A stretch of DNA of 64,000 nt, taken from a virus. Location: the IMG/VR virus record IMGVR_UViG_3300046542_000332, positions 1-64,000 of that record, one strand, 5' to 3'. This document shows, in pieces, positions 21,591-54,068 of the stretch (position 1 is its first letter; each line of letters begins with the position of its first letter). The position numbers and the translations under genes were made by a program. The notes below the pieces were generated by a model. It saw nothing but the letters and a program-made list of their open reading frames with translations, was not told where the DNA came from and made no database searches.

Positions 21591-22369
21591 TGCGGCTTAC
21601 CCCAAATGGTGCCGGCGGCGGTGGTTGTCGAGCCGGTGTTGGTGAACTTGTCGGCGTGTTCCACCACAATGACGTTTGGATAGCCTGGCGGCACCTTGTC
21701 TGAGCCGTCGTTGGGCTCGCCCTCGCCCGGCGCGTCAAAGTAGGGAACTGAGCACTTGAGGGTGACGTCGGCAATCAGGATCTTGATGTTCTTGATGCCG
21801 TCGGGCTTGACGTCCATCCAGTCGATGCGCACCGACTCCAGGGTCTGCGGCATGGGCACCTTGTACTGGCCGAACTCATACACCGCGTCGAAATAGCGGT
21901 TTCTCGGCTCCTTGATGAACGACGACAGTTGCGCGGCCAGGCTCTGCGCGGATCCGCCCTCGCTGGCGATGATCACCATCTGTAGGCGCCGATCCAGCAT
22001 GACGTGCTTGTAACCGTACCAGGAGCCACCTTCTTCGATCTGCACCATCTGCCGGCCGATGTGATCGCCGCCCCAGTCCGCGCCGGTACCGACAAACGTG
22101 TCATCCATGGCCAGCAGCAGCACGGGAAACAGCGTGCTTTGGCCGGGCTCGCCGTTGGTGTTCTTCGCGTAGGCGCGCAGCATGCTCTCGGCATCGTCGA
22201 CCATACGCCCGGCCACCCACTTCACCGCCTCATTGAGCGGCTTGGCCATGAACGCCTTTACCGCCTTCGTGTCGGCGTAATCGGGGTAGAGGCCGTCCCG
22301 CCAGCGTTTCAGGTAATGGGCAAAGCCGATCTTGATCTGGTCGAAACTGCCGTTCATAGGTTTGTTCAT
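21587..22369 (-). CDS. Tail completion/terminator-like protein (P1 gp24-like)
   Basis: Synteny and size; start MNKPMNGS with GAGGTG RBS. Confidence 0.55.
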   Translation of the reverse strand: MNKPMNGSFDQIKIGFAHYLKRWRDGLYPDYADTKAVKAFMAKPLNEAVKWVAGRMVDDAESMLRAYAKNTNGEPGQSTLFPVLLLAMDDTFVGTGADWGGDHIGRQMVQIEEGGSWYGYKHVMLDRRLQMVIIASEGGSAQSLAAQLSSFIKEPRNRYFDAVYEFGQYKVPMPQTLESVRIDWMDVKPDGIKNIKILIADVTLKCSVPYFDAPGEGEPNDGSDKVPPGYPNVIVVEHADKFTNTGSTTTAAGTIWGKPQ

Positions 22370-22403
22370 AGCCACCTCGATACTTTTCCGGGCGTACCCG
22401 GAA

Positions 22404-22420
22404 AAAGTATCCCTATACAT
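22404..22420 (-). promoter_or_regulatory. 17-bp operator-like site ATGTATAGGGATACTTT (copy 1)
   Basis: Identical to 54110-54126 and 16/17 identical to 43796-43812. Confidence 0.6.
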
Positions 22421-22422
22421 CG

Positions 22423-22905
22423 TTATGCCAAATTAATGAGCGAAAGAGGCGTTCCAGCCTTCACCGTGGGCGCTGGAAGCATCCAAAGGTGCTGCGGGGT
22501 CACGCGACCGATAATCTCCGGGCGAATCAACGGGGTACCCGCCTTTTCAAATGCCCAGGCCACGAACTCGCTACAGAAGAAACGCGCCTTGCGGTCGAAT
22601 CGGTCGGAGTGCACCAGGATCCCAAGCAGCCCCAGGTAATCGTAACCGGCGCCGACCATGCTCAATGCAGCCTGCTTGACGGCCTGCGCATCCTGACAAG
22701 GGATGTTGACCAGGGCGGCGTAGCTGGATTTCTCCAAGCGTTCCTTGAGCGGGGTCAGGCCGACACCGGTGAGCATGTTGGCGCCTATCACCTGATCGCC
22801 CACCACGATTTCAACGTGACTGAATGCGGACCAGGTAACGCCCCGGATCAGCAGGCTGCCGATCATGCGCCGGCGCGTGAACAGGATCTGTACCGATTGC
22901 ATCAT
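22423..22905 (-). CDS. Permuted papain-like amidase (YaeF/YiiX, NlpC/P60 superfamily)
   Basis: FSHVEI...GAGYDYLG...FFCSEFVA...RVTPQHLW. Confidence 0.85.
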   Translation of the reverse strand: MMQSVQILFTRRRMIGSLLIRGVTWSAFSHVEIVVGDQVIGANMLTGVGLTPLKERLEKSSYAALVNIPCQDAQAVKQAALSMVGAGYDYLGLLGILVHSDRFDRKARFFCSEFVAWAFEKAGTPLIRPEIIGRVTPQHLWMLPAPTVKAGTPLSLINLA

Positions 22906-23672
22906 TGCGCGCCCACCTCAGCCCACTCGGCATAGGATTGTGGCCAGTAGGCGGTGAAGTCGTAGTCGGTCGGCACTTCGGCGGCGCGCATGGCGGCGTT
23001 GTGCTGCTCGGCCACGGTAAAGATCGCGATGTCGGAGCATTTGACCGCCGCCACGACGTCGAACGCCAGCTGTGCGGTCACCGTGACAAAGGTACCGCCC
23101 AACGTTTTCCAGTTAATGGCCTGGCCCTCGTCGTCGATCAGGGTGTCAGTCATGGCGCCACCAGCGGCCAGCACGTCACGCGCGTCGTCCTTGAGCCCCA
23201 GCCACTGGTTACGGCTGAATAGGTCGGAGTGCACCCACAAGGTTCCGACCTTGACGCCCGCAATGCTACGGCGATCGCGCTCGTCCTTGATCGCCAACCA
23301 CGCACGGGCCTGCTCAGTGGCGTGCTTGGTGGCCACCAGCTCGGCGCTGACCTGCCAACTGCCATCAATCCAGGCATGGGTAGCGGATGGCCGCGGCTCG
23401 CGCGTCAAACCCTCAGGCAGCTCGCCCAGCACAGTGAATTGTTCCGCAGCACCGGTGGCGGTGCTGTAGACCACGCCCCGGTGGTCGAGCCGCAACGCCG
23501 GTTTGTCGTCCACCAAGGCCCACACGTAGCCATCGGGCGCCGCATCGAGCGGCAATCTCAGCGTGAGTGTGTTTTCGGGCACCTGCGGGCCGATACCGGG
23601 CACGACAGGGAAAGTTACAGGGCCGAACAACGCGCCGGCCGGGTCCACCAGATAAATCACGTTCATAGTCAC
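22902..23672 (-). CDS. Tail fibre assembly protein with DUF4376-like domain
   Basis: DHRGVVYSTATG...GELPEGLT...W.DGSW and IKDERDRR...HSD...WKT motifs. Confidence 0.75.
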   Translation of the reverse strand: MTMNVIYLVDPAGALFGPVTFPVVPGIGPQVPENTLTLRLPLDAAPDGYVWALVDDKPALRLDHRGVVYSTATGAAEQFTVLGELPEGLTREPRPSATHAWIDGSWQVSAELVATKHATEQARAWLAIKDERDRRSIAGVKVGTLWVHSDLFSRNQWLGLKDDARDVLAAGGAMTDTLIDDEGQAINWKTLGGTFVTVTAQLAFDVVAAVKCSDIAIFTVAEQHNAAMRAAEVPTDYDFTAYWPQSYAEWAEVGAQ

Positions 23673-23673
23673 C

Positions 23674-24627
23674 TCAGATCAGTTTGATTCGGCCGGGATA
23701 GGCAATGTTTCGGCTTCTGAATCGAATCCAGTTGTTAAACCCTTGGGTGTCTACCGTCACCGAACCCATGACCGCGTTATCGGTAGTCGACGGGTCATAC
23801 GAACCGGATCCGGAAGGAGGGAGTGCACCGCTAGGTACCGCTCCTCCAACACCCGCACTAGAAATCCTGCCGTCTGCTTGAGCGTGCGCATTACCAAGAA
23901 CATACGTGCCAGCCCCCATGTCAGAGCCAGTCCATTCCTGCGCGACGGTGCGCAACCATGTGCCGTCCTGCCATGAGCCCGCTGCCCGCGCCGCATCCAC
24001 TCCGCGCGACTCATCGAGCATACGAATGAATTCGCCGCGTCCCTCTGGACTACGGAAGGTCGTTGAGCCGTTGCCGGATGTCCACATGCCCTCTTTGCCG
24101 GCGCGCAAGGCTTCGGTGGTCAGCATTCCTGAGGCTTGCGCGTGATCCCACAACCACGGCCATTCCGCGCGGTTGTAGAGAAGGCCGTTATGACCCGCCC
24201 AGCCGCCGGGCTGAAACGCGGTCGTGGTTTCGAACACCGGGCGACCCAGTGGCGTGCCGTCCAAGCGATCCAACACGCGCCAATTGCCATTGCCATCGCT
24301 GCGTAGGTGCCAGAAGTCACCCGCCCCCATCAGGACGAAGAACTGGTAGCCCTCGGGGCGCAAATGGGTATGAAACAGGATCTTGTCGGCGCCGACAGCA
24401 GCGATCACCAGGCGGTTGCCGCTGTTGTCGACGCGCTGCACTCGGACATCCATCGAGCGCGAAGCGGCCGGCAAGTAGATGTTAAAGGGGATGGCGCTGG
24501 CGTCTGCCAGTAGGAAACCCGTCTCACTGTCGGTCAGTGTCTTGCCGGCGGTGATGATGGCGTTGTCCATGCCACGCATGGCCAGCAAGCCGCTTTCGAT
24601 ATCGGCTAAATCGTTGGCGCGACTCAT
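23674..24627 (-). CDS. Second, short tail fibre protein with collar domain
   Basis: GNGSTTFRSPEGRGEFIR...RGVD...RSRNIAYPGRIK collar motifs. Confidence 0.75.
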   Translation of the reverse strand: MSRANDLADIESGLLAMRGMDNAIITAGKTLTDSETGFLLADASAIPFNIYLPAASRSMDVRVQRVDNSGNRLVIAAVGADKILFHTHLRPEGYQFFVLMGAGDFWHLRSDGNGNWRVLDRLDGTPLGRPVFETTTAFQPGGWAGHNGLLYNRAEWPWLWDHAQASGMLTTEALRAGKEGMWTSGNGSTTFRSPEGRGEFIRMLDESRGVDAARAAGSWQDGTWLRTVAQEWTGSDMGAGTYVLGNAHAQADGRISSAGVGGAVPSGALPPSGSGSYDPSTTDNAVMGSVTVDTQGFNNWIRFRSRNIAYPGRIKLI

Positions 24628-25169
24628 TGGGCAGCTCCAGCGGAATCAAAGGTTTGGGATGGCCAGTCGGTGGCCAGCATGTGATCGGCGTAGGTGCCGA
24701 CCTTTACAGCGGCCAGCAACGCCGCCTCACGGTCAAAGCAGGCCTGTACGTAGGCGCTGATAGCGCGCCAAATAGCCAGGATCTGCGGCGCGGTCAGCTC
24801 AACAAACCCGTCCGGGGCCTTGAGGTTGCAGACATAGGCGGGATCGAGCATGGCGCCCATGGCCTTGTCCAGAATCGTCGCTCGCGTATCGCGGTCGGTG
24901 GCGATGGCCAGGCCCTTGACGGTAACGCCAGCCACCTCGCGGGCATAACGCTCGGCCTTGATGATCGCCGGATAATCTGGCGGGGCTTCGGGGAATGGCT
25001 GCTTGGTGATTTCACCGTCAGCCCCAAGTGTCCATACGCCGTCTGTTTCTTGGGTGATCCGTAGAAACAGGGCGTCTTTGATAGCGACAGCGGTGCTCGG
25101 GATGTCGTGAAGGCCTTCGATAAGGCAGGTCTTGAGCGTCGAGTCAGCGTTAAATTCAGCGTATTTCAT
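24624..25169 (-). CDS. Tail fibre chaperone (DUF4376-like)
   Basis: ERYAREVAGVTV...TDRDT...YVQACFDREAAL. Confidence 0.75.
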   Translation of the reverse strand: MKYAEFNADSTLKTCLIEGLHDIPSTAVAIKDALFLRITQETDGVWTLGADGEITKQPFPEAPPDYPAIIKAERYAREVAGVTVKGLAIATDRDTRATILDKAMGAMLDPAYVCNLKAPDGFVELTAPQILAIWRAISAYVQACFDREAALLAAVKVGTYADHMLATDWPSQTFDSAGAAQ

Positions 25170-25178
25170 AAGCCCCCC

Positions 25179-27134
25179 TTAGTGGCCGATGGCGATGTAG
25201 CGCGCGTTGGATGTGCCTAAGCCATCTGAGCCGTGAACTCGGACGTTCAACGTGGTTTTTGAGATATTTGCCTCGACGACATACGGGGTGATGCCGGCAA
25301 GCGCGCCAGTCGTCTTATCAGACATTGAAACGACGGCCTGAAGCACTGCATTCGGAAACCCAATCGGATACGGAAACGCCAAATCCCCCGTAGTCCCGAT
25401 GATGGTGCCCCACTGGATAATCAGCCCCCCCAGCCAACTGGGGAAAACGATGTAGCCGTTTCGCGCCTTGAGGATCTGAAAGCCCCAGCGCAGTTTCTTT
25501 GGGGTCACAATGGTGGCGTCGTCGGCGCCGGCGTCGGTTTGCGTCTGCGTTGCGACCTTGGCCGTACCTTGGGCCAGCTCCGTCGCTTGCGCGGCCAGCA
25601 CGGAGAGCGCGGCAATATCAATGGTTCCCTGGTTGATCGGCGCGTTCCAGGCCTTGATGCACCACATCACCGACAAGTTGCGCGGGCGGGTTTCGGTGCC
25701 GACGTTGGAGTCGGTGTTGCTGGTCATGCTGCGCGTCACGCCGCCCAGTAGGCCGCCAGCGGAGCTTTTGACGCCATTGGAGCCAAAGCTCGTGCCGGCG
25801 GTGTTATCGACCAGGATGCCGTGGCTGTGCGCCTTGGTAAGGTCGCTTTGCAGAGTGCCAATCTCGCGGCCAATGTCGACGCCGCGCCCGTGGTCCCAAC
25901 CGCGCAGGAACTCGCCACGCGATTCTGGCAGGGTGCTTCCACCCAAGAAGGCAGCCAAATCCGGGTATACCGCTGGATTAAAGGCGCTGCCGTTGACCTC
26001 AAGGAAGCCCGGCGGAACGACGCCCCTCGGGAATGGCAGCATGGCGCCAACGGGCAGGCCGCCGGCGGTGGTCAGCAGCGCGGTAATTTCCGCCTTGGTG
26101 TAGCTGTCGGCCACCTTGAACGATTTGAAGGCCAGGATTTCCAGGCTGTCGCCCAAGTTGCAGGGAGTCGCCAGGGTGATCTTGGAACCGTTGGCGGCCG
26201 AGGTGAATTCGGTGATTTCCCGGCCGTTGCGCAGCACGATGGCGCTACCGACGATGTGAGGCGCGATGAATTCCGCCTGAGCCACAGACGCGACGAACGA
26301 ATAGCGCTCAAACGCCTTGCCGCTGCCTACGCCGCCACCCAATTGGAAAAACGTACCGTCGTAGTTGAGGTCGTACAGAGAGCCCGCTTTGATGTCGCCC
26401 GCTTCCAGGTCCACCAGGCCGGTATCGCCGCCACGCTTCACGGCAATGAGCGCGAAGTCTTCAACCTTGGCCGTGACGGCGCCGGTATTGGTGAGCGGCG
26501 CCAGGAACTGGAAGCGCTGGCCGGCGCGCAGGCTCGGCAATGCCGTCTCAAGGGTGTCGAATTTCAGGATCAGGGCGTTGGCGGTGCTGCTGGTTGTGCT
26601 CAGGTACGCCAGCGGGCCGCTGTCATAGGCCATGTCTTCGCGCAGCATGTATTGCGGGTGTGCGTCGGGCGATCCTTCGTGATCAGTCAGGGCCGCCAGC
26701 GCCACGCTTTCCAGCGGGTCAATGGTGAAGCTGATCGAGTTGCCCGGTACCTGCGTAAACGCCAGGTCGTTGAACATCACATAGGGGGTGCCGTCAGTTT
26801 TGTAGACCGCCACCTGCCCATTGGCCTTGGACCAGACGAACACCAGAACATTGCCCGCCCACCAAGCAATCTCACCGACCGGGACCGTCCCGACATCCTC
26901 GCGCCAGGCACTGGTAATGCGCAGCTGGTAGGGCGTGGGGCGACTGCCACCGGCCACCGGAATCTTGCTGCCCACCGGATCGACCAGCGCCACCTCGTTG
27001 CCCGTAGGGTCATAGTGGGCGCGGCCGAAAGAGACGTGCGTGATTTTGAGTTCAATCCCAACGCTGTCGGCGTTGAACGCAGCCGCTTGGCCCGCCAGCG
27101 TCAGCGATGGATTGATGATTACAGGATCTGCCAT
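25179..27134 (-). CDS. Long tail fibre protein
   Basis: DAHPQY, LPVGAMLPF...RGEFLRGWDHGRGVD collar, GLIIQWG gp53-like C-terminus. Confidence 0.85.
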   Translation of the reverse strand: MADPVIINPSLTLAGQAAAFNADSVGIELKITHVSFGRAHYDPTGNEVALVDPVGSKIPVAGGSRPTPYQLRITSAWREDVGTVPVGEIAWWAGNVLVFVWSKANGQVAVYKTDGTPYVMFNDLAFTQVPGNSISFTIDPLESVALAALTDHEGSPDAHPQYMLREDMAYDSGPLAYLSTTSSTANALILKFDTLETALPSLRAGQRFQFLAPLTNTGAVTAKVEDFALIAVKRGGDTGLVDLEAGDIKAGSLYDLNYDGTFFQLGGGVGSGKAFERYSFVASVAQAEFIAPHIVGSAIVLRNGREITEFTSAANGSKITLATPCNLGDSLEILAFKSFKVADSYTKAEITALLTTAGGLPVGAMLPFPRGVVPPGFLEVNGSAFNPAVYPDLAAFLGGSTLPESRGEFLRGWDHGRGVDIGREIGTLQSDLTKAHSHGILVDNTAGTSFGSNGVKSSAGGLLGGVTRSMTSNTDSNVGTETRPRNLSVMWCIKAWNAPINQGTIDIAALSVLAAQATELAQGTAKVATQTQTDAGADDATIVTPKKLRWGFQILKARNGYIVFPSWLGGLIIQWGTIIGTTGDLAFPYPIGFPNAVLQAVVSMSDKTTGALAGITPYVVEANISKTTLNVRVHGSDGLGTSNARYIAIGH

Positions 27135-27162
27135 AAAGCCCCCACGGGTTTAGTTATGGCGA

Positions 27163-27204
27163 ATCGTAACGTTCGAAAATCGCCCTAAATCGGGCGACTT
27201 TGCA
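27163..27204 (-). promoter_or_regulatory. Late promoter (TGCAAAGT ... TACGAT)
   Basis: GCAAA-30-YANNNT; hairpin tcgccc/gggcga in the spacer. Confidence 0.65.
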
Positions 27205-27207
27205 TGC

Positions 27208-27999
27208 CTAAAGGAGGGCATCCATGACGACAGGAATACCGTTGAACACCACCGAGGTATCGCCCATCACCACAAAGGTATGTTTCGGGAAACGCTCAGG
27301 CGGCCTGACGCGCTGGCGGCGGCTGTAGAACAGATTGGTACCGCCCGACAGCATGGCCGCGCCCATCGTCATGCGTGCCTGGATGATCGGCGGCACAAAC
27401 TGGGCGTTACCCCTGGCGCGCCCCACCGATACGCCGCGCCCGATGTAGCCTATGGGGATGGTGAGGCGTGAGCGCTGGGCTGCGCGCAGCTCCAGGACAA
27501 ACCGCGCCGCCACGGCCGTGCGGGCGGCCTTGAGGATCCGCGCCGGGACAATCTGCGTCTCGATGTCCACGCGCAGGCGGCTGGTCAGGAAGTAGTCCGC
27601 CTCATTCTCGCCGGCCGCGCGGATCTCGGCCTCAGTCATGACGTCTACCGGGTACTCGCCGGCCTTCTTGCACCACAGCTGATCGATGGTGAACACCGGA
27701 CCAAACAGGGTTTTGAGATAGGCGGCCAGAAACGTGGTGCCGCGCTGGGGGTTGCGGTAGCGCCAGGCATGGAACAGATGGCGGATCTGTTCCATGGTGG
27801 TAGTGCGCAGGACGGCCAGGCCATCGCCGACCAAGCTTCGCTCAACGAGGGAGTCCGGGCCGATATGCGGCATGCCGTACAGCCCCACCTCAGTGACCTG
27901 ATCGTCGATGTGCTGCTTGTACAGGCTCAGAAACAGCGCCTTGAGTTCGCTTTCTACCTCATCGAACTCGGCACTGCGGACAAGGGGCTTTAACTCCAT
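27208..27999 (-). CDS. Baseplate wedge protein (P1 gp16-like)
   Basis: RGTTFL...QLW...YP...FLTSRLRV; synteny bplA-16-fibre. Confidence 0.65.
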   Translation of the reverse strand: MELKPLVRSAEFDEVESELKALFLSLYKQHIDDQVTEVGLYGMPHIGPDSLVERSLVGDGLAVLRTTTMEQIRHLFHAWRYRNPQRGTTFLAAYLKTLFGPVFTIDQLWCKKAGEYPVDVMTEAEIRAAGENEADYFLTSRLRVDIETQIVPARILKAARTAVAARFVLELRAAQRSRLTIPIGYIGRGVSVGRARGNAQFVPPIIQARMTMGAAMLSGGTNLFYSRRQRVRPPERFPKHTFVVMGDTSVVFNGIPVVMDALL

Positions 28000-28001
28000 G
28001 A

Positions 28002-29396
28002 TTAACCCGCCTCTTGCAGGAGGACTTGCAGGCTGTCGGCGGTGATGTAGCGGTATTGCTCAGGCAGTGGTGTGTCATCGTCCCCGATGCTGTTGACGAT
28101 CATGTTGCCCAGGCGCGACGACAAGGCCGTCACGGCGTTGTCTCTCATCAGCCGGTAAACATCCTTCTCCAGAATCTGCGCCTCGCCGCGCTTGGCCCAC
28201 GCTGATTCAGGACCGTACTCATTGAGCAGGATGGTGCGCACTTGCTGCGTGACGGCGCCGGCCTCATACACCGACGGGATGGTCAGCGTCACCACCATGG
28301 GCACCACGACATCGACAACCGGCACGTATTTGATCTTGTAGCTGTCGTCGGCGCGGCGAATCACCGCCGTTATCTGCGATTCCAAAACTGCTTGCGTGGT
28401 CCCGGCCTTGCGTACCGCCACGAACAGCGTGTTGATGTTGTCCAGGCTCGGGCCGCGTACAGCTTCCTCTTTGGCTTCGTTCCAGATGCTGAGGAACGTC
28501 ACCGGGGATATGGCCTTGCGCACCACAAAATCGAAGTTAGAGCCAAAGACGGCGCTGTCGTCGTAAATGCCGGGGTAGGAACACACCTCGCGCATGGTCG
28601 AGATATCCATGGGGTCGGCGCCGGTCTGGCTGACTTCGAACAGCTCCATGGCCAGCAGCGCGTCAGCGGCGCCACCGGTGTACTCAAAATAGAACTTGAG
28701 GCCAGCAGCCAGCGCCACAGCGCCCTCAGTGTCCTGCACCGTGACCGCGATCTGCTCGCCCACGGCCGGTTGATAGCCCGACAGCCCGTCGATGCCGAAT
28801 TGCAGGCTCAGCTCACCGGTTTCGTCCGACTTGATGTTGTAAACGCGCTCCCCGTCTTCGATGTTGGCGAAGTCGGTTGAGTATTCAAACCCGTCGACCA
28901 GCACGGCCGCGATAAATCCCACCTCGGGCTGACTCAGCGGCACCGAGTAAAACGGGCGATAGGTCGCCACCTGGCGGGTGAAAATGCGGGAGCTGACTTG
29001 CTTGGCGGTCAGATAGCCAATGGCGCCGGCGGCCAGGGTCACGCCAGTGGTCACCAGCCAATAGCGCCCGGCGGCATCTTGTAGCGATCTGCCGGCCGCC
29101 ACCTGCACCGTCACCAGTGACGCGTTGGTCACCTTGATCGCAGCAATGGAAGGCGTACCGAACGGCAAAATGCCTTTGACCGCCGCGTCACTGCGTACTG
29201 TCACGTCGCGGGCCATGGTGAACGGCTCGCCGGCGGTGACTTCCACCTGGTTGCTCACGTCCGCCAGCATGGCCGCCATGGATCCCAGGCTTTGAATAAT
29301 CAGTGGGTCGCCAATCTGATAGCGCAGGGCAATCGTGGGGTAGCTGGCAATCTCATCGACCGCGCTTTGCACGAATTCTGTTTTAGTAACTGCCAC
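28002..29396 (-). CDS. bplA: Baseplate J-like protein BplA
   Basis: 464 aa; EPF.MARD.TV..DAA.KGILP and SIWNE motifs; synteny. Confidence 0.7.
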   Translation of the reverse strand: MAVTKTEFVQSAVDEIASYPTIALRYQIGDPLIIQSLGSMAAMLADVSNQVEVTAGEPFTMARDVTVRSDAAVKGILPFGTPSIAAIKVTNASLVTVQVAAGRSLQDAAGRYWLVTTGVTLAAGAIGYLTAKQVSSRIFTRQVATYRPFYSVPLSQPEVGFIAAVLVDGFEYSTDFANIEDGERVYNIKSDETGELSLQFGIDGLSGYQPAVGEQIAVTVQDTEGAVALAAGLKFYFEYTGGAADALLAMELFEVSQTGADPMDISTMREVCSYPGIYDDSAVFGSNFDFVVRKAISPVTFLSIWNEAKEEAVRGPSLDNINTLFVAVRKAGTTQAVLESQITAVIRRADDSYKIKYVPVVDVVVPMVVTLTIPSVYEAGAVTQQVRTILLNEYGPESAWAKRGEAQILEKDVYRLMRDNAVTALSSRLGNMIVNSIGDDDTPLPEQYRYITADSLQVLLQEAG

Positions 29397-29703
29397 GGTT
29401 CACGTCCCCCAGGTCCGCCAGACTCACGTAGGAGCCGTTAATTTCGATATAGATGGTCTTGCGGTCGAGCCCATCATTGGTCGTGTACATGTTGATGGTG
29501 CCCGGTGGCAGGGAGGCGATAACGGGAATGTCCTCTCGCATCTTGGCCAGGTAGGCGTCAGCAATGGGCGAGCTGAGGGGTTTCTGTAGCAAGTCCTCAG
29601 TCGGCGCCCCATAGGTCGAGCCGTAATAGGTGTACGGCCGGGTACCCACCCAATGCGCAATCATGCGAAAGAGCAGGTCCGTGTTTAGCGTGTCGTCAGC
29701 CAT
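29383..29703 (-). CDS. Baseplate wedge initiator (PmgA / T4 gp25-like)
   Basis: HWVGT...YGS.YG...AKMREDIPV; between the tape-measure gene and bplA. Confidence 0.65.
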   Translation of the reverse strand: MADDTLNTDLLFRMIAHWVGTRPYTYYGSTYGAPTEDLLQKPLSSPIADAYLAKMREDIPVIASLPPGTINMYTTNDGLDRKTIYIEINGSYVSLADLGDVNRGSY

Positions 29704-29731
29704 AAGGCACCGGTAGCGGTTTATTGATCAC

Positions 29732-29773
29732 ATGATGGCAAACAAAAACCGCCCAATAAGTGGGCGGTTTGCA
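29732..29773 (-). promoter_or_regulatory. Late promoter (TGCAAACC ... CATCAT) overlapping a terminator hairpin
   Basis: GCAAA-30-YANNNT; aaaccgccca/tgggcggttt inverted repeat. Confidence 0.65.
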
Positions 29774-29789
29774 GTGAAACGACGGCCTG

Positions 29790-32171
29790 TCAGCCCATAC
29801 CAATCCCCCCGCTGGCGGCGTGGGCAATCTGCCGATCGTCAACGTTCTGGCTCAGCGGTACCGAGAATTGAACGCTCGGCGCGGCGGCCTTGCTCGGCGT
29901 CAGCAGCGGCTTTTCCACGGCCGGCGTGGGCGGGATCTTGAACTGAGACGCATCCGGCGCCGGTGCCGAGTAACGCGGCGCCATCATCGAGCTGGCGCTG
30001 ATCGGCTTGATCGCGGCCGTCCCTATGGCAGGCGTCGACACCGTGGGCGCCATCACCCCCACGGTTTGGGCGCCAGGCATGGCCGGAGCACCCGCCGAGT
30101 GCGGGCCTATTGGCATCACGCCCACGGCCGGGCCACCCTTGAGTGCTGCCATGGTACTGGCCAACGCGGCATTGGCTCCCTCGGGGGCTTGCACCTTGCC
30201 CTGATCGGCGCGCCGGGTAGGCGTCAGGTCGCCGGCTTGGGCCTGAGCCAGGTACCCGTCGTATTTGCCCTGGACGTCGGCCAGGCCGTTGGTACCGCCG
30301 TTGGTGAGCTTGCGGGCGCGCACCTGGTCGCCGGCCATGGCGGCCTTGTCGGCACCGGAACTCTTCCAATGCTGCACCGCGATCTGCGCCGAATACTTCG
30401 GATCCATGGCCAGGTCCGGGTTGTTCACCAGGTCGATGCCCAACTTCTTACCCATTTCAGCGTATTGAGCCTTGCCCGTTAGCTGGATGTTGCCGCGCCC
30501 CCGGTACTTGAAGCCGTCGCCCGCCTCGGTGTTGCCCATCCGCCCGCCATAGACCTTGTTGGCGATGGCTTCCGGGTTGTTGGCGTCGGTGCGCGCTTCC
30601 TCGGGGCTCTTGTAATACTTGGGGAATACCTCCTGTAGGCGCTTGGCGCTGTAGTTCAGGTTTTCCTCGTTCTTGGTGAAGCCGCCCGACTCGTGGTCGA
30701 CGTTGGCCATCAGCATCGCCTTGGACTTCGGATCGGTGATCCCGCCGGCGTCCATGGCCTTAATCAGTTCATCCTTGCGCGCATTGGAGCCGCCCGTGTA
30801 GCGCCCGCTGGTGACCTTGTTTAGAACGTTCTGGCCGGCATCCTTGATCGAGGTGGCCTTGTCGCCCACGTAGTCCTTGGCGGTCTGGATCTTGTCCGCC
30901 ACGGCGTCCACGGCCTTGGTAAACGAATCCTTGATACTGTCGGTCATCCCCGCCAGCAGCTTGGTACCCGTTGTGACCATGCCGTCCCAGGCGTCTTTGA
31001 CCGAATCGAAGGTTTTACTGATTTTCGCGGTGATCGAGGACAGGTCGACGGTAGCCAGCCACTCGCCCACCATGCCGCCAATCTGGTCACCGATCATCGC
31101 GCCGGCAATGGCGCCCGCCGGGCCACCAAACATCCCTACCGCGCCGCCTACCAGCCCGCCGATGCCGCTCCCGACGTTCCCGTAACGCTGTTTCTTGTTC
31201 TGCTCTGGTGTCAGGTTGGGGTCATCGGACGCCAGCACATCGCTGGCCAGCATCCCGCCGCCGATCAGCGCCCCGATCAAGGGAAGCTTTTTCAGAAACT
31301 TCTTGAACTTGCTGGCGGGCGGGCTCGGGCCAGGCCCCGGACCAGGGCCGCCGCCAGGACCACCACCAGGGACAGGCGGGATCGGAGGATTCTTTTTAAA
31401 TACACTGGCCACACCCTTGGCAGCCGCCGCAATCAGGCCGGTTGCCCCCGTCATCTTGCCGAGTGCCTTGATCGGCGCCAGCAGCAGGCCCAGCGTCGAC
31501 AGCAAGGCCGTCATGAGCAGGCCCATACCGCCACCGCCCCCACCGGTGCCTCTTACGGCGTTCCAGATACGGCGGTACCAGCTGACGTTTTCGCGCTGCT
31601 CAGACTTGCGGCCGATGCCAAACAGGCGACCCATCGGCCTGAGGACACCCATCAGCGGCTGGAAGATGCCACCAATCTCCTTGACGGCCTGGACAGTCGG
31701 ATCAATCCCGTCGGCGCCGGCTGCGACCGCACTGGCCGCGCCTTTCATGCTCTCAGCGGCATCACCCATGGCTTGGGACGCTCTAGAGGCTCTGTCGCCG
31801 CTGCCAAACCGGCCGTTCTCATCGCGCTCGGGCGGTGGCGCAGGGGGCGGCCCTGGCGGAACAGGTGCCGGGGTCGGGCCTGGCGGTACGGGGGTTGGTG
31901 GCGGACTTGGCGGCGCCGGTGGCAGTGGTGCAGGGCCGGGGGGTGGGCCTGGTGGCACGGGCGGCAAGGGCGGCGGATTGGGGGCAGGACCTGGCGGTAC
32001 CGCTGGCGGGATATTCGCCATCGAGTTGGCAATCGAGGCCAAGTGCGCCAGGGACGCTGCCGTGTCCACTTGAATCGCCCTCAGCACCGCCAGCTCTTCG
32101 GCCATCCGGTCCAAGTTTTCTTTCATGGCCGCTATCAGGAAGCCATTAGGATCCGAGGGAAGAGTGCTCAC
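29790..32171 (-). CDS. Tape-measure/injection protein (Sit-like) with GH19 lysozyme domain and Pro-rich segments
   Basis: HESGGF...ENLNYS...IANKVYGGRMGN...DGFKYRGRGNIQLTG is GH19-like; Gly/Ala-rich hydrophobic segments. Confidence 0.75.
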   Translation of the reverse strand: MSTLPSDPNGFLIAAMKENLDRMAEELAVLRAIQVDTAASLAHLASIANSMANIPPAVPPGPAPNPPPLPPVPPGPPPGPAPLPPAPPSPPPTPVPPGPTPAPVPPGPPPAPPPERDENGRFGSGDRASRASQAMGDAAESMKGAASAVAAGADGIDPTVQAVKEIGGIFQPLMGVLRPMGRLFGIGRKSEQRENVSWYRRIWNAVRGTGGGGGGMGLLMTALLSTLGLLLAPIKALGKMTGATGLIAAAAKGVASVFKKNPPIPPVPGGGPGGGPGPGPGPSPPASKFKKFLKKLPLIGALIGGGMLASDVLASDDPNLTPEQNKKQRYGNVGSGIGGLVGGAVGMFGGPAGAIAGAMIGDQIGGMVGEWLATVDLSSITAKISKTFDSVKDAWDGMVTTGTKLLAGMTDSIKDSFTKAVDAVADKIQTAKDYVGDKATSIKDAGQNVLNKVTSGRYTGGSNARKDELIKAMDAGGITDPKSKAMLMANVDHESGGFTKNEENLNYSAKRLQEVFPKYYKSPEEARTDANNPEAIANKVYGGRMGNTEAGDGFKYRGRGNIQLTGKAQYAEMGKKLGIDLVNNPDLAMDPKYSAQIAVQHWKSSGADKAAMAGDQVRARKLTNGGTNGLADVQGKYDGYLAQAQAGDLTPTRRADQGKVQAPEGANAALASTMAALKGGPAVGVMPIGPHSAGAPAMPGAQTVGVMAPTVSTPAIGTAAIKPISASSMMAPRYSAPAPDASQFKIPPTPAVEKPLLTPSKAAAPSVQFSVPLSQNVDDRQIAHAASGGIGMG

Positions 32172-33074
32172 TTACACCCCCCCGATCACTTTACGCACCA
32201 GGTCGACGGCGTTGGCCAGCACACCGGCTTTCTTGTCCGCCTCTACGGCCTCGGGAGCCGGCTCAAGGTCTGGCAGGTCGGCTTTCATGAAACGATCAGC
32301 ACTGTCGAGCATGGCCGCCGCGCGATCTGGCAGGAACTCGGCACCGCGTTGCAGCGTGTCCGGATTGAGGCTGTCGAGCATCGCGCCACCGCCATCCTTG
32401 AGGCGCTGCATCAGGCGCGCATTCTGCTCGACCAGGTCGTCATTGAGCCTGCACTGATACAGGTAGGCCTCACTGATCCCGGCCGCCTGAGCGTCGTTCT
32501 CAGCCATGATCGCGTCCACGCTGTCCATCATGGCGGCGCACTCGCCCGCGAAGCCCAGCGACTCGATGGCGCCCGGCTCGATGCCATCCAGCATCGCGTC
32601 ATAGCCCTTGTTGGTGTTGTAGTTCGGGACACGGACGAAATCCATCCCGTGGAACGTCCGGGGCGTGCGCTTGCCGTTCTCATCGGGCGCGTGGAACACT
32701 GAACTGAATCCGTAGGCCTTGCTGTCGAACAGGCGACCACCGATCCGGCCTGGCGCGTTGTTCAAAAACTCCTGCTCGTGCTCCACCGTGCCGTCGGGCA
32801 GACACTTGATGTACACCGTGCGCACGCAGGGTTCCAACACCACCACCTTTCCGCCCTCGTTAACGCTCTCAGGGACGTTGAGGCCGTATTTCTCGCGGAA
32901 CGTGTGGCCGATGTAGCCGTATACGTCGCCCTGGCGCACCAGTTCCTGTACCGACGGGCCGTTGATCAGGCGCATGGCCGCGTCGATATCGACGTCACGA
33001 TCCTGGCCGTTGAAGTCGCGCCCGCGCTCGTTCAAGTTGTATCTGATAACCCCTGTGCGCTTAAGCATGATCAC
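32172..33074 (-). CDS. pro: Prohead protease (P1 Pro-like)
   Basis: YNLNERGR...YGYIGH...GFSS...GMDFVRVPNY; directly after the portal gene. Confidence 0.75.
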   Translation of the reverse strand: MIMLKRTGVIRYNLNERGRDFNGQDRDVDIDAAMRLINGPSVQELVRQGDVYGYIGHTFREKYGLNVPESVNEGGKVVVLEPCVRTVYIKCLPDGTVEHEQEFLNNAPGRIGGRLFDSKAYGFSSVFHAPDENGKRTPRTFHGMDFVRVPNYNTNKGYDAMLDGIEPGAIESLGFAGECAAMMDSVDAIMAENDAQAAGISEAYLYQCRLNDDLVEQNARLMQRLKDGGGAMLDSLNPDTLQRGAEFLPDRAAAMLDSADRFMKADLPDLEPAPEAVEADKKAGVLANAVDLVRKVIGGV

Positions 33075-34675
33075 TCTTCCTCGTCTTTATCTGGCTTGCC
33101 GCCTGGTGGTGGTAACTGGAGCGGATCGGTGTCATCACCGCCGCCGAATCCCCCACCACCCATGTCAGGCGCAGGCGGTTTTGCATCCTTGATGCCCTGG
33201 GCGAAAATCTTCGCCTTCTCGGCGTCTACCTCCATCATCGTGGCCATGAATTCTTCCATCATGGGCGCTGGCAGCCCCATGTTGCGCATCATGTCCATAC
33301 CCTGGAGCAGCATCACGCCGCCACTGATCGCGCGTTCTCGGCTGGCCTGTTTCTCGGCCTCAAGCGCGGCAATCGAACCGAAGAAATTCACGTCATAGGG
33401 GCGCTCATCGTCCGCCCAGCATTTGCCGGTCTTGGCCAGCATGTGACGATCGATCGTATCGTTCACCGTCTGCATAAAGGCGGTGCGGATGATCCGGGAA
33501 CGCTCGGCGGCTTGGCTGCTGGTGCGGTTAAACCCGCCCTCACCCAACCCCCCCGCCATCTGGTCGGCAAAGCCCACCATGGACAGGTCAATGCCCAAGG
33601 TGCCCGCCAGCTTGCGCGCGCAAAACATCACGTCTTCGATGTTGGCGCCGGCGCCGGAATTGGAGCTGCCATTGAACGAGGTGATCGCGGTCAGCTGCTT
33701 TTCGTTGAAGGTCGGCATGATGTGGAAATTGCGCGACGTGGCGTATTGGCCCGTCCTCACCGCTTCCTCTGCGCGCGTCTTCATGCTCTTGAGCATCTTT
33801 TCCAGCGAGTCCATGAACAGCTTCTGTTGGGCGGCTGTCATGTCCGACAGGTTGGCGCCCAGCATCGTCTCGTCAATCGATCCGGTGATGCGCTGGCCGA
33901 TCATCCCGCGCAGGGCAGAAATTAGGTTGTCATAGTCAACCTCGGCCGCTTCCAGGAACGAACCACCCACCAGCGCCGGCAATGGCCGAAAATCGCGTGG
34001 ATCTTTGGCTTCCATGTTGATCTTTTGGGCGTTCTCGATGGCGCGCATCTGCGGCAGGTACACCATGCGCGGCATGCGCATACGCACCATGTCCAGATGG
34101 TTGAAGCGGCTTTGCATCTTCGGCCCTTTACTGACGATGTAACCCACCGTCTGGCCAACCTCTTCATAGGCCTGCACCAAAGGGGCGAAAGGTTCCTCGC
34201 TGTCGAAGGCAAACATTCCCTCGTTCTTTTTGGTGTAGAGCCTGGCGTAGGCGTCCCCGAAGGCGCACGCAGTGAAGCACATCCCATGCGCGTGCTTGTT
34301 GAGGATCTTGGCGATAAATTGCAGCTCATCGACCAGCTTTTTATCGGCCGCCGAAATACCGGGCTTGGGCTCGATAAAGATCGTTTCCCCGGTCGTCTCG
34401 TGGCCGCCCAGCGCCATCTGGACGTGCAGCCTCAGGATGGTGCTGATCAGCCCGTCCTGAATCATGTAGTGCCACTTCTGATAGATCGCCGACCGGGAGC
34501 GCGCCGGGCGATCGCTCGACCCCAGCAGCATTTCAACGCCAACGTAGTCGGCGTCAAACGTGCTGATACCTTCCATTCGGTTTTCGGGCGCCGTGCTCAC
34601 CTCGCCCAGCAAAAGCTTGGCATGGCCGCTAAGCGACCCCAGCCAGCTCTTTTTCGGTTTCTTTTCGTCGGCCAT
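33071..34675 (-). CDS. prt: Portal protein (P1 Prt-like)
   Basis: 534 aa; ALGGHETTGE, GGSFLEAAE and LGIDLSMVGFADQMAGGLGEGGF motifs. Confidence 0.8.
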   Translation of the reverse strand: MADEKKPKKSWLGSLSGHAKLLLGEVSTAPENRMEGISTFDADYVGVEMLLGSSDRPARSRSAIYQKWHYMIQDGLISTILRLHVQMALGGHETTGETIFIEPKPGISAADKKLVDELQFIAKILNKHAHGMCFTACAFGDAYARLYTKKNEGMFAFDSEEPFAPLVQAYEEVGQTVGYIVSKGPKMQSRFNHLDMVRMRMPRMVYLPQMRAIENAQKINMEAKDPRDFRPLPALVGGSFLEAAEVDYDNLISALRGMIGQRITGSIDETMLGANLSDMTAAQQKLFMDSLEKMLKSMKTRAEEAVRTGQYATSRNFHIMPTFNEKQLTAITSFNGSSNSGAGANIEDVMFCARKLAGTLGIDLSMVGFADQMAGGLGEGGFNRTSSQAAERSRIIRTAFMQTVNDTIDRHMLAKTGKCWADDERPYDVNFFGSIAALEAEKQASRERAISGGVMLLQGMDMMRNMGLPAPMMEEFMATMMEVDAEKAKIFAQGIKDAKPPAPDMGGGGFGGGDDTDPLQLPPPGGKPDKDEEE

Positions 34676-37137: not shown

Positions 37138-37166
37138 AAAAAGAAGCCCGCACAGGGCGGGCTTTG
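37138..37166 (-). terminator. Terminator after the tailspike gene
   Basis: aagcccgc-acagg-gcgggctt plus U-rich tail. Confidence 0.7.
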
Positions 37167-39775: not shown

Positions 39776-39800
39776 GAAAAGCCCGCACTTGGCGGGCTCT
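39776..39800 (-). terminator. Terminator after the SGNH gene
   Basis: agcccgc-acttg-gcgggct plus U-rich tail. Confidence 0.65.
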
Positions 39801-39851
39801 CATTGCAACTACAAAAAACTGCTTAGTGGCGACCTGGAACCGCTTTCAAAC

Positions 39852-48711: not shown

Positions 48712-48756
48712 GCCATCCCTTAAAACGCAAAAAGGGCCGAATTACCGGCCCTTGAC

Positions 48757-51338: not shown

Positions 51339-51620
51339 CTACTCCTGTGACTTAGCCTTGAATGGCGTTAAGTTTTCTCGCCTGCCTTGGCGTAATGTCG
51401 CCCGCTTCTCTGCCTTCAACGGCAGCGGACGAACCCATATTTGTCCGGTTTTGAACTGGTACAGCTCCCACAGGCCGATCTTCATCGGTACAGAGCCGTC
51501 TTCGTAGGTCTGCCAGGCGCGACGGCTGACATGGATCAGCGCGGCGCTGGCCCGCTGACTCAGGCCGGTGGTAGAGCGCGATTGCTTCACCTGGTCCGCT
51601 GTAGGGCTGCAAGGCTTCAA
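51339..51620 (-). CDS. XRE/KorC-like HTH regulator
   Basis: PTADQVKQSRSTTGLSQRASAALIHVSRRAWQTYEDG...GLWELY. Confidence 0.7.
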   Translation of the reverse strand: MKPCSPTADQVKQSRSTTGLSQRASAALIHVSRRAWQTYEDGSVPMKIGLWELYQFKTGQIWVRPLPLKAEKRATLRQGRRENLTPFKAKSQE

Positions 51621-52702
51621 TTCACGATCCCTATCTTGGCCAGCTCTTCGGCCCGACCGGCCATGGCTGCGCGGTTGGCCTCGGTGTTCGCCTGGGCCTT
51701 AGCCAGGATTTCGTCCAGCTGCTCGTCGCTGACGGCCAATGTCACAGCTACGGCCGGCTCTACGTTCATGTTGAACAGCTTCGCCAGGGAGTCGCGGTAG
51801 CCTTTCTGACTGGCCACCTTGAGTTCGGTCCCGTCCTTGCCTTCCTTCACGCCTTCAAACAGCGTCAGGGCGGCTGGTGACAGGTTGCTGGTGTCCTTGA
51901 ACAGCGCCCGGCCTTCGCCTTCACCGTCGCACTCAGGGCAATCGTAATTGGGTGGCTTGCGGCCGTCGTAGCCAATGCCCCCCAGCTCATCAAACTCGCC
52001 AATGGTCTTGCTCTCGGCCTCGGCGGCGGCTTTATCGGCCTCGTACTGCTGGCGGCGGCGCTCCATTTCACTCGGGCGCAAGTGAAACTTGTGGTCGATG
52101 CCGTAGCAGTAGCGGCAGCACCGACGCACGTACTCGACCAGCTCACGCGGATCGGCAAACGACGCCGCGTGATAGGTGGCAATGAGCTGGTTTTGAACGT
52201 CGGCCGTGCGTGCAAACAGCTCGACCTGGCGCGCCAGGGTATAGGGGTGGTTCTTAACCTTACTTAGCAGTCGACTGGCAGCCGCTGAGGCCACGTTGTC
52301 GTTCTTGCAGGTAAAGCCCGCATCCCGGTAGGACTGGCTCGCGTTGTAGGTCACTAACCACAGGTCGACAAACTTCGCCTGGCGAGCGTCCAACCCTTGG
52401 AAAGCCGCCATTTCCATGGCTTTGCGCTCTTTCAGGCTGAGCTTTACCGGGTTCTTTATCGCGGTCGTGCCCACCTTGGGCTTGGTGCCCTTAGTCGCCG
52501 GCTTTGCAGCCTTTGCCCCTGGCTTCGCCGCCGCTTTAACCGGCTTTTTGGCTTCCGTGGTGGCCGGCTTTTTGCTGCTTTCCACCTTGTTAGCCTTAAC
52601 TCCACGCGGTTTAGCAGGTTTGCGAGGGCGCGCAGTAGCCACGGACGGGGATAAATCATCCCTCGACACGGCAGGTTTATCAGTCTCTGGCTTGCGCGGC
52701 AT
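51617..52702 (-). CDS. pacA: Terminase small subunit PacA
   Basis: RQAKFVD...NASQSYRDAG...AASRLL; RRCCRYCYG and CPECDGEG zinc motifs; GVKEGKDG. Confidence 0.85.
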   Translation of the reverse strand: MPRKPETDKPAVSRDDLSPSVATARPRKPAKPRGVKANKVESSKKPATTEAKKPVKAAAKPGAKAAKPATKGTKPKVGTTAIKNPVKLSLKERKAMEMAAFQGLDARQAKFVDLWLVTYNASQSYRDAGFTCKNDNVASAAASRLLSKVKNHPYTLARQVELFARTADVQNQLIATYHAASFADPRELVEYVRRCCRYCYGIDHKFHLRPSEMERRRQQYEADKAAAEAESKTIGEFDELGGIGYDGRKPPNYDCPECDGEGEGRALFKDTSNLSPAALTLFEGVKEGKDGTELKVASQKGYRDSLAKLFNMNVEPAVAVTLAVSDEQLDEILAKAQANTEANRAAMAGRAEELAKIGIVN

Positions 52703-52773
52703 CCCTACACCTCATGCGTAATAAGTTCGCTATCAGCCGTGGCAACACGGCCAACCTCTTGCGCTTCACGTTA

Positions 52774-52804
52774 AAAAAATAGCCCGCAGGGCGGGCTATT
52801 CTTT
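52774..52804 (-). terminator. Strong intrinsic terminator
   Basis: aatagcccgc-agg-gcgggctatt with U7 on the minus strand. Confidence 0.8.
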
Positions 52805-53280
52805 TGGGCGTGGATCCTGGATCCCCACCACTATCAGCCAACGGAACGCTGCTGACCGGCGCCGCAAAGGCAGGTAAGTGCCCTCCTCCTGTCGGTTATC
52901 CATGCTGTGATGTTCCGGCGCACTGTCTAAAGGCACCATAGCCCGGTGCGAACCACACACCCGACCACCACAACGAGCGACCGCATAACGCTTTTGAATG
53001 CGCCCCTTAAGCGGGCCAGGCTATTTGCCGAAGCAAATTAGGGTGCAGCAGGTAACGCGCTTAGGCGCATGGTCAACCCGCGTTACTGGCGCCTCAACGG
53101 GTCAAAGATAACCCCGCCATGCTTGCCGCCTTTCGGCCTACTGCATACCGCAGCGCTCTTTTTCAAAGCGCTCCGGTATGCGTAACCCCGTTAAAGACCC
53201 CTCAAACCGCCGAAGTTCGGTTTGAGGGGGTACCACTGCCACCGTTGACAAGCTGGTCACGCCAGTAGGGGCCACGCATG
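52774..53280 (-). ncRNA. Candidate large structured non-coding RNA
   Basis: No ORF in the track; many stems with cUUCGg and GAAA tetraloops on the minus strand, a possible pseudoknot, and a terminator at the end. Confidence 0.45.
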
Positions 53281-53315
53281 GCTATACACCCCCACCTCTC
53301 CAGCACCTGATACCT

Positions 53316-54068
53316 CTAGAACAAAATCTGCTGCACCTGCTTTGCAATCTGTTCCGGCGCAGGATGGATGGGCTCGTAATCAGCCATCGCTTCCTCCCGC
53401 GCTCGGCGGCGTATCTGTTCCGACATACTCCCATGCAGTTCACCCACCAAACGGACGAGCTTTGCACCTCCCCGAATCTCTTCGAACTCGGGGGCATGGG
53501 TTCTGACAACGTTTAGAGCACTGACCAGATCCGTGGCGACGACGGCCAGGTTGGACAAAAGAGCGCGATCCAGGCTCAGTGCCTCGATCATGATGGCGTT
53601 GCGGCGAGTCAGGCCGTCGACGAACTGCCCGAACTGGCCCATTAATGCGGTGCTGATAATCCCCCTGAGTACCGCCTGATTGCCTTCTTCCGGCTCAGCC
53701 AGAATGTCGTCGTGCATGTCAAGAAGGTAATCAGTCGTCACCCCGTACAATTGTGCCATTAAACGCAGGTTCGCCAGGGACGGCAGACGATGGCCATTCT
53801 CGTACAAGCTGATCATCGTTACGCCTTGTTGCGCGAGCGCCAAAGCAGCGGCACTTTCACTGTAGCCGGCCACCTTGCGCGCTCGGCGCAATTTGCACCC
53901 CATGATGCCCATCAGGCGGGTTTCCTCGGCGCGCCGGCGCTCATTCATGCCAGCGCCAACCCCCAAGTCTTCCGACTCATCAAACAACGAAAGAGCCGCG
54001 CCTGGGGCGGTGCCCGGCTGTTCGGCTTGCTCTGTCGCCTTCGAAGCGGTTGGTTTATCCCCGTCCAT
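53316..54068 (-). CDS. XRE-family transcriptional regulator
   Basis: KLRRARKVAGYSESAAA...ISLYENGHRLPS...YGVTTDYLL. Confidence 0.85.
   Translation of the reverse strand: MDGDKPTASKATEQAEQPGTAPGAALSLFDESEDLGVGAGMNERRRAEETRLMGIMGCKLRRARKVAGYSESAAALALAQQGVTMISLYENGHRLPSLANLRLMAQLYGVTTDYLLDMHDDILAEPEEGNQAVLRGIISTALMGQFGQFVDGLTRRNAIMIEALSLDRALLSNLAVVATDLVSALNVVRTHAPEFEEIRGGAKLVRLVGELHGSMSEQIRRRAREEAMADYEPIHPAPEQIAKQVQQILF

Follow-up and report, generated by a model that had tools for sequence, protein, structure and literature searches.

Introduction

Several described RNAs bear on the locus analysed here. EAR, the subject of work by Irnov and Winkler in 2010, reportedly sits inside an operon, where it favours read-through at distal terminators. 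The put RNA of HK022 binds the zinc-binding domain of the RNA polymerase beta' subunit and suppresses terminators without protein factors. Its architecture, of ~70 nt, comprises two stem-loops and a triplex (PMC9378689). DicF is a small RNA derived from a 3' UTR and matured by termination and by RNase E and RNase III (PMC9438474).

Here we describe an RNA encoded in a stretch of 64,000 nt (the window) that belongs to a virus record of 84.7 kb. It contains a core domain of ~115 nt that belongs to a wider family, and further conserved structure adjoins this domain where the packaging and late genes begin. In lambdoid prophages, the segment directly upstream of DicF is homologous to this core. 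In the window, a stretch of ~290 nt with an unrelated structured domain takes the place of DicF, the DicF covariance model (RF00039) finds no match, and the next gene is terS rather than dicB.

Results

The region between the regulator gene and terS

The structured region lies on the minus strand in a gap bounded by two ORFs:

53316-54068, minus strand: upstream gene for an HTH regulator of 250 aa (ORF; Pfam HTH_3, 2.5e-7; phrog_7396 and transcription-regulator PHROGs)
52703-53315, minus strand: the gap, 613 nt
52703-52772, minus strand: 5' UTR of terS, with an apparently conserved long-range stem pairing GCGCAAGAGGUU with AACUUAUUACGC (read by eye from the sequence and its relatives)
51617-52702, minus strand: downstream gene for the small terminase subunit, terS (Pfam Terminase_2, 2e-12; phrog_51, 4e-23)

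The stop codon of the regulator gene adjoins the structured region. At the other side, terS is the first gene of an array of ~50 kb in which, judging from ORF orientations, all genes lie on the minus strand. The terS leader is itself structured and ends at the start codon (52702). At least three more strong intergenic terminators are found on the coding strand of the array, at 48753-48732, 39801-39777 and 37164-37144. A scan for sigma-70-type promoters across the gap found none.

The folding energy differs greatly between the two strands. The minus strand has a minimum free energy of -260 kcal/mol, compared with -219.5 ± 6.8 in dinucleotide shuffles (z = -5.96), whilst the plus strand gives a z of just -2.44. 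An asymmetry of this kind is expected of G-U pairing in a minus-strand transcript.

The arrangement of regulator, gap and terS was also found in four IMG/VR contigs of 77-86 kb (L003-L006), in an 81-kb plasmid of Pseudomonas atacamensis (L001) and in two short metagenome contigs (L177 and L178). A stem equivalent to the long-range stem of the terS 5' UTR is present as a closing stem in the P. atacamensis sequence, as read by eye. Scanning viral contigs by TerS yielded only the four known contigs and one distant relative (28% identity), and a metagenome scan for further family members gave three short contigs.

The window and its seven relatives were aligned (alignment A5), the RNAalifold consensus was corrected in the core and the pairs were then counted. 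In A5, 93.3% of the cells are paired. Changes on both sides are seen in 29 of the 119 pairs, against 11.6 ± 2.5 in shuffles (none of 500 reaches 29) and 3-13 in controls slid out of register; with only eight sequences, five of them closely related, these counts are indicative rather than definitive.

No ORF on either strand is conserved in position and frame among the eight family sequences. The region had originally been called ORF-free, and this is correct in substance, although mechanical ORFs of 34-54 aa exist. A reading of the region as small ORFs was rejected, the 54-aa ORF at 52796-52960 and the others not being conserved in frame. From the folding, the compensatory pairs and the lack of a conserved ORF, we conclude that the gap encodes a conserved structured non-coding RNA that is read on the minus strand.

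This bears out the original prediction of a densely structured minus-strand RNA, and every hairpin that it listed is present in the sequence (53198-53229, 53143-53181, 53128-53137, which reads GCC-GAAA-GGC, and 53023-53038). Compensatory changes exceed those of shuffles both in the family (29/119 pairs) and in the core (19/31). At gathering thresholds, no family of Rfam 15 (including ROOL, GOLLD, EAR, riboswitches and ribozymes) matched anywhere in the window; at E ≤ 10 all matches were sub-threshold, the best being mir-660 with 21.9 bits against a gathering score of 73.3 bits. ARAGORN detected no tRNA or tmRNA in the window, and the Rfam tRNA model did not match.

The core domain

The most widely conserved part of the RNA is a compact domain with the following elements:

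53039-53152, minus strand: core domain of ~115 nt with closing stem P1, hairpins Pa, Pb and Pc, and pseudoknot PK1 (covariance model R1)
53117-53122, minus strand: 5' strand of PK1, GCAUGG, at the Pa/Pb junction, pairing with CCAUGC at 53067-53072
53052-53086, minus strand: hairpin Pc, GUAACGCG/CGCGUUAC (covariation)
53060-53078, minus strand: Pc loop of 19 nt, GGUUGACCAUGCGCCUAAG, which contains the 3' strand of PK1 at 53067-53072 (alignment A3, 24 sequences)

The covariance model R1 was built from 24 representatives (alignment A3). It matches the window at 53039-53152 with 87.5 bits (E = 1e-25), all helices being present, and the core occurs as a single copy in the genome. The topology of P1, Pa, Pb and Pc is cloverleaf-like, with a 3' strand that runs unbroken from Pc to P1. 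Pa is optional in the family and is absent in L067.

Covariation in the core was assessed in 100 matches to R1, of which 63 are distinct, with PK1 added by hand. Among the distinct homologues 94.5% of cells are paired and 19 of 31 pairs show compensatory change, compared with 8.6 in shuffles and 3-7 in slid controls; the alignment was fitted to the nested helices of R1 and so favours these, whereas PK1 lies outside the model. Hairpin Pc has compensatory changes in eight of its nine pairs. For PK1, 98.9% of cells are paired and three of the six pairs are compensatory across the same 63 sequences.

These counts also bear on the position of the pseudoknot. An H-type pseudoknot had been proposed from two interleaved stems, and both are present in the sequence (53089-53094 with 53063-53068, and 53079-53086 with 53052-53059). 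The second of these is the stem of Pc, which covaries. The other, AGGCGC/GCGCCU, shows no compensatory change: it is a perfect 6-bp helix in the family of the window, but across the 63 distinct homologues it is paired in only ~65% of cells. The supported pseudoknot is thus PK1, 53117-53122 with 53067-53072, and not AGGCGC/GCGCCU.

Nearly all positions of the Pc loop are invariant in A3, the family form being GGUUGACCRURYGCYURAG, and the Pa/Pb junction carries GYAAGYAUGG. Unpaired loop nucleotides barely vary between E. coli phages, Pseudomonas phage-plasmids and an AT-rich prophage. The loop of Pb is pyrimidine-rich and resembles an anti-Shine-Dalgarno sequence (UCCU). The idea that this loop pairs with GGAGG in the 3' domain, or with ribosome-binding sites located downstream, was considered and rejected, no covariation being found for it.

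Parts of the RNA outside the core

The original prediction listed a large ornate non-coding RNA among its options. The RNA is more aptly called a modular leader, or a modular 3'-UTR RNA, made up of several hairpins, the core, a second domain of ~125 nt and a terminator. In transcript order, the elements outside the core are:

53265-53295, minus strand: hairpin P0 (GUGGGGG/CCCCUAC) with a conserved loop (helix 1 of A5; 4 of 9 pairs compensatory)
53198-53229, minus strand: 12-bp hairpin followed by a weakly U-rich tail (seen in the sequence)
53143-53181, minus strand: hairpin c, 8 + 6 bp with a 1x1 mismatch, abutting the core (helix 2 of A5)
53023-53038, minus strand: hairpin d, AUUUGC-UUCG-GCAAAU (seen in the sequence)
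53017-53002, minus strand: small hairpin between hairpin d and the second domain
52857-52983, minus strand: second multi-branch domain of ~125 nt, closed by CGGUCGCU with GGCGCCG (RNAalifold helices 9-15 of A5)
52833-52856 and 52807-52829, minus strand: two further hairpins (helices 16-18 of A5)
52773-52799, minus strand: strong intrinsic terminator with an 11-bp stem (5 A-U/G-U and 6 G-C pairs) followed by U7 (terminator scan; tail UAUUUUUU)

On the 5' side, P0 and the 12-bp hairpin are missing from both distant relatives (L001 and L178), which keep hairpin c, the core and the second multi-branch domain. The 12-bp hairpin was misaligned by MAFFT and is therefore outside the RNAalifold consensus and the pair count of A5. 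By eye, its stem in L003-L006 has an entirely different sequence with complementarity kept; the hairpin may serve the regulator gene as a weak terminator. Hairpin c has 12 pairs in A5, four of them with compensatory change, and 93.5% of its cells are paired. Its apical loop is GAAAA in the window and GUGA, GGGA, GGAUU, GGAUC or longer in relatives. A lambda-type nut site (boxA plus boxB) was rejected since this GAAAA loop is not conserved and no N-like gene is adjacent. The stem of hairpin d varies among relatives yet remains complementary, again by eye.

On the 3' side, the second multi-branch domain, in which several pairs are compensatory in A5, is found only in the window's own family. It holds a conserved single-stranded stretch, CAUGGAUAACCGACAGGAG (52882-52904), with two GGA motifs 12 nt apart that are conserved in 8/8 family sequences and predicted to be largely single-stranded. 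The GGA-containing motifs originally noted here and at about 52812-52822 are present, as is the terminator hairpin with its U7 tract at 52773-52799, and a third GGA motif, CCAGGAU, is conserved in most relatives. The terminator is helix 19 of A5 and is 100% paired; it lies 257 nt past the core. Weak, sub-threshold matches to Thr- and Trp-leader terminators in Rfam fall in the terminator region.

The core domain in other genomes

A stretch of 71 nt in the window is 82% identical to a P1-like plasmid of E. coli. (A 73-nt match near the P1-type tRNA cluster was considered as a tRNA and rejected.) The copy of the core in P1 coincides with a segment annotated as a 'dicF-like region' and scores 83.7 bits with R1. 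It begins ~35 nt past the -10 element of the ban promoter, whose operator is annotated as controlling ban; the C1-controlled promoters P1ban and P2ban closely precede it, and tRNA genes and ban come after it. Past the core there is a strong terminator at a distance of 33 nt, and ban itself lies 2.4 kb farther on.

Copies with scores of up to 130 bits are found in lambdoid phages and prophages, in the early-left operon, for example in mEp460 and cdtI. In mEp460 the core ends 15 nt ahead of the Rfam match to DicF. In the lambdoids, dicB, recE, xis and int all come after the DicF-type terminator. No N is annotated in the early-left operon of the core-bearing lambdoids examined, which as an absence from annotation is weak evidence, and Q is annotated in mEp460, the one core-bearing lambdoid record examined in full. 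In L067 the core lies 20 nt before the start codon of a replication initiator, with no nearby terminator.

The genes around the core differ from one context to another: HTH regulator and terS in the window; dmt, tRNAs and ban in P1; ydfABC, DicF and dicB in lambdoids; RecT and the replication initiator in L067. In every context the core reads in the same direction as the genes downstream of it, and an intrinsic terminator nearly always comes after it, at these distances from the core:

P1-type elements: 23-33 nt
Lambdoid variants (DicF-type segment): 47-80 nt
P. atacamensis plasmid: 243 nt
Window: 257 nt
L067: no terminator

Of 5426 complete E. coli genomes, 4308 (~80%) carry the lambdoid form of the core, in up to eight copies each, and no annotated feature underlies it in these genomes. 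A degenerate pattern for the Pc loop was found in at least 120 IMG/VR contigs, with 74 distinct variants among the matches listed. A further 39 pattern matches in genome contigs were mostly confined to the loop or scored 22 bits or less; six full-length ones (18-28 bits) were inspected and none was convincing. In 151 sampled Gammaproteobacteria there was one match, inside a coding sequence. A full-text search of the accessible literature with the sequence of the Pc loop returned no paper, and searches on the 'dicF-like' region and on P1 ban transcriptomes found nothing on the core domain. The review of DicF covers its processing without the upstream core domain (PMC9438474).

Judged by sequence and by covariance-model score, the core of the window, the 'dicF-like region' of P1 and the lambdoid segment that precedes DicF are homologous, and the core domain is a very widespread, uncatalogued family of phage RNA.

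Discussion

The structure of this RNA is well supported, and for its mechanism we offer a ranked hypothesis. The near-invariance of unpaired nucleotides across different phages argues for a conserved host partner, or for a ligand or catalytic centre. Since the core has different neighbours in each context, it is unlikely to depend on a dedicated phage protein or on a metabolite linked to what the downstream genes do.

From its context, we tentatively place first the reading that the RNA is a cis-acting processive antiterminator, similar in action to put or EAR, that gates entry to the ~50-kb late array. The modular RNA would be part of a transcript leading from the regulator gene towards terS. 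On being transcribed, the core domain would fold, and its invariant single-stranded nucleotides would keep it bound to the host RNA polymerase during elongation, perhaps together with general factors of the Nus type. The core-bound polymerase would resist the terminator at 52773-52799 and the later intergenic terminators of the array, such that only transcripts carrying the core would reach the packaging and structural genes.

Several observations favour antitermination. The structure is real (z of -5.96 against -2.44; 29/119 compensatory pairs in the family and 19/31 in the core; PK1 covaries), its near-invariant unpaired loop points to a conserved host partner, and no gene for a partner protein travels with it. 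It stands in sense orientation with a terminator to be passed in nearly every context. In P1, transcripts must cross the terminator 33 nt past the core to reach ban, and in the examined core-bearing lambdoids there are genes beyond the DicF-type terminator, yet no annotated N in the early-left operon. The late array has its three or more further strong terminators. The layout in L067 fits an action that is independent of distance better than it fits a local switch. Antitermination may therefore be the single reading that fits all of the contexts, and we prefer it with less than even confidence. An RNA related to antitermination or packaging that controls read-through into the downstream gene, there called pacA, was among the original suggestions; the antitermination part of this now ranks highest on context, whilst nothing links the RNA to packaging itself.

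Some features fit this reading less well. The core is not homologous to HK022 put, so that the likeness is purely functional. In lambdoids it always precedes a short, variable segment that ends in a terminator, such as DicF, and this resembles a small-RNA gene module, in which efficient read-through would lower the yield of the terminated RNA. In the window, the terminator-like 12-bp hairpin (53198-53229) is upstream of the core and beyond its reach. The sigma-70 scan detected no promoter in the gap. A late promoter could lie between the terminator at 52773-52799 and terS. The model also leaves the second domain of ~125 nt without an explanation.

A broader form of the proposal is possible and is held with still more reserve. 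The core may define a new class of protein-independent processive antiterminators, unrelated to put, that would serve the ban operon of P1, the early-left operon of N-less, Qin-type lambdoid prophages and the late packaging operon of the Pseudomonas phage-plasmids. It would hence be active in most E. coli genomes, and in the window it would be fused to a second structured domain with a separate function.

The main rival, which we consider rather unlikely, takes the RNA to be a stable, processed non-coding RNA acting in trans. It would be the 3' UTR of the regulator operon, released by cleavage (for example by RNase III at hairpin c) and by termination at 52773-52799 as an RNA of ~380 nt. Its 5' core would bind a host factor or stabilise the molecule, and its variable 3' part would act as effector, in the shape of DicF-type small RNAs in lambdoids and of the second domain in the window. 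The layout of core, variable segment and terminator does recur in all lambdoid variants and in P1, where promoter, core and terminator look like a self-contained small-RNA gene. DicF is established as a processed small RNA derived from a 3' UTR (PMC9438474), and the long hairpin c lies directly 5' of the core in the window. This reading has more difficulty with L067, where the core stands 20 nt before a start codon and no terminator follows it. A mere stabiliser, moreover, needs neither ~40 invariant unpaired nucleotides nor a pseudoknot, and RNA structure carries on beyond the terminator into the leader of terS, which suggests a role for read-through transcripts. The two readings are compatible, in that partial read-through could give both a terminated RNA and downstream expression.

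The cloverleaf-like topology raises the improbable alternative of a processing element, either a self-cleaving ribozyme or a tRNA-like substrate of a host RNase, that would cut the polycistronic transcript and set the ends of the downstream RNA or mRNA. Conserved loops together with a pseudoknot are typical of catalytic or enzyme-recognised RNAs, and the core sits between functional units of operons, just 5' of small RNAs with processed 5' ends. However, no ribozyme or tRNA model matched (Rfam, ARAGORN), the published 5' end of DicF relies on RNase E rather than on self-cleavage (PMC9438474), and in P1 there is nothing to release between core and terminator.

A riboswitch-like attenuator, in which the core would sense a metabolite or a protein of phage or host and set the efficiency of the downstream terminator, has less still in its favour and is very unlikely. 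The compact pseudoknotted fold, the invariant junction and loop nucleotides and a terminator only 23-33 nt past the core in P1-type elements would suit it, but the core-terminator distance ranges from 23 to 257 nt, with no terminator in L067, and no conserved alternative pairing between core and terminator was seen. The downstream genes (terS, ban, dicB, replication initiator) are unrelated in function, and no riboswitch family in Rfam matched.

Least probable of all is the originally suggested RsmA/CsrA sponge, in which GGA motifs of the 3' half would tie up the translational repressor of the host while the phage develops, since the two fully conserved, largely single-stranded motifs of CAUGGAUAACCGACAGGAG and the CCAGGAU of most relatives amount to only two or three against the many of RsmY, RsmZ and CsrB, to none of which there was an Rfam match, and since they lie outside the widely conserved core and could explain at most the family-specific 3' domain.

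If antitermination is correct, it would explain how ban is expressed across a strong terminator in P1, how dicB, recE, xis and int are expressed past the DicF terminator in N-less Qin-type prophages, and how this family of phage-plasmids gates a late operon of ~50 kb. Whatever the mechanism, an abundant, unannotated domain that is supported by covariation and lies beside a well-studied small RNA marks a gap in RNA catalogues.

Among the known RNAs, ROOL and GOLLD resemble the gap RNA in being long and dense in hairpins, often borne by prophages, rich in GNRA and UUCG loops and of function not known. Unlike them, the gap RNA is modular, is situated in an operon leader, has only its ~115-nt module widely conserved and matches no Rfam family. 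EAR is pseudoknotted and of similar size (~120 nt), and its position within operons resembles the lambdoid and window contexts; it differs from the core in fold and sequence and belongs to Bacillales, in a different phylum.

Membership of the put family was rejected. Four variants of the core compared by BLAST with HK022 22000-33500 gave chance-level matches only (the best of 14 nt, E = 0.017), R1 found no match in the putL/putR region at E ≤ 1, and the architecture differs, with ~115 nt, a three- or four-way junction and a 6-bp pseudoknot in the core. In other respects put is the closest parallel. Both RNAs occur in temperate phages of gamma-proteobacteria, in early operons with terminators to pass, the action of the core in cis being presumed; both have conserved unpaired nucleotides and no dedicated partner gene nearby; and both put and the P1 core are promoter-proximal, the core starting ~35 nt past the -10 element of ban and putL just after PL. 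If the core does modify RNA polymerase, it would be only the second family of phage RNA known to do so without a dedicated protein, and, with its presence in P1, a phage much used in the laboratory, and in most complete E. coli genomes (4308 of 5426), it is far more widespread than put.

Occurrence and natural variation of the core domain

The lambdoid form of the pseudoknotted core domain, represented by the query L048:2991-3107, is found in 4308 of the 5426 complete E. coli genomes in the ecoli_genomes collection. It occupies 8924 places across these genomes, with at most eight in any one genome, and the RefSeq annotation has no feature underneath it at these places. Three other core-bearing sequences depart from the usual form, and in an AT-rich prophage the core has a different gene setting.

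Core variants and the core of the AT-rich prophage
L066:4668-4805, hairpin Pb with an inserted G run and ~35 extra nt
L064:1634-1750, unrelated sequence in place of the 5' strand of stem P1
L112:5223-5337, unrelated sequence in place of the 5' strand of stem P1
L067:4876-5206, core flanked by a RecT-like gene and a gene for a replication initiator

Since the 5' strand of the P1 stem has been exchanged for unrelated sequence in L064 and L112, the core element itself seems to contain recombination breakpoints. In the AT-rich prophage, a plausible sigma-70 promoter (CCGACA, 16 nt, TTTAAT), picked out by eye, would end a few nucleotides 5' of the P1 stem.

In most family members the loop of hairpin Pb (53099-53115 in the window) is rich in pyrimidines and, with UCCUU or CUCC, looks like an anti-Shine-Dalgarno sequence; the window's own loop reads UUAUCUUUGA. 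No pairing partner for this loop was established.

Elements of the late gene array and of other replicons

Further hairpins lie in the 5' UTR of the small-terminase gene, terS, and, as strong terminator-like elements, within the late array.

Hairpin elements of the window
52703-52772, minus strand, terS 5' UTR 3' of the terminator, conserved long-range stem around a small hairpin (by eye)
48732-48753, minus (coding) strand, strong intrinsic-terminator-like hairpin in an intergenic gap
39777-39801, minus (coding) strand, the same
37144-37164, minus (coding) strand, the same; at 37144-37165 readable as a terminator on either strand

A counterpart of the 5' UTR stem is visible by eye in the P. 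atacamensis plasmid. A few genes 3' of terS, this plasmid also carries an annotated 'Hint domain-containing homing endonuclease' (L001:7978-8418; NZ_CP070504 68468-70744), which may be an intein-type insertion into the packaging module.

In phage cdtI, Rfam matches to C4 antisense RNA (68 bits) and isrK (60 bits) adjoin each other at L049:529-717, in the rightward early region 5' of the antirepressor gene.
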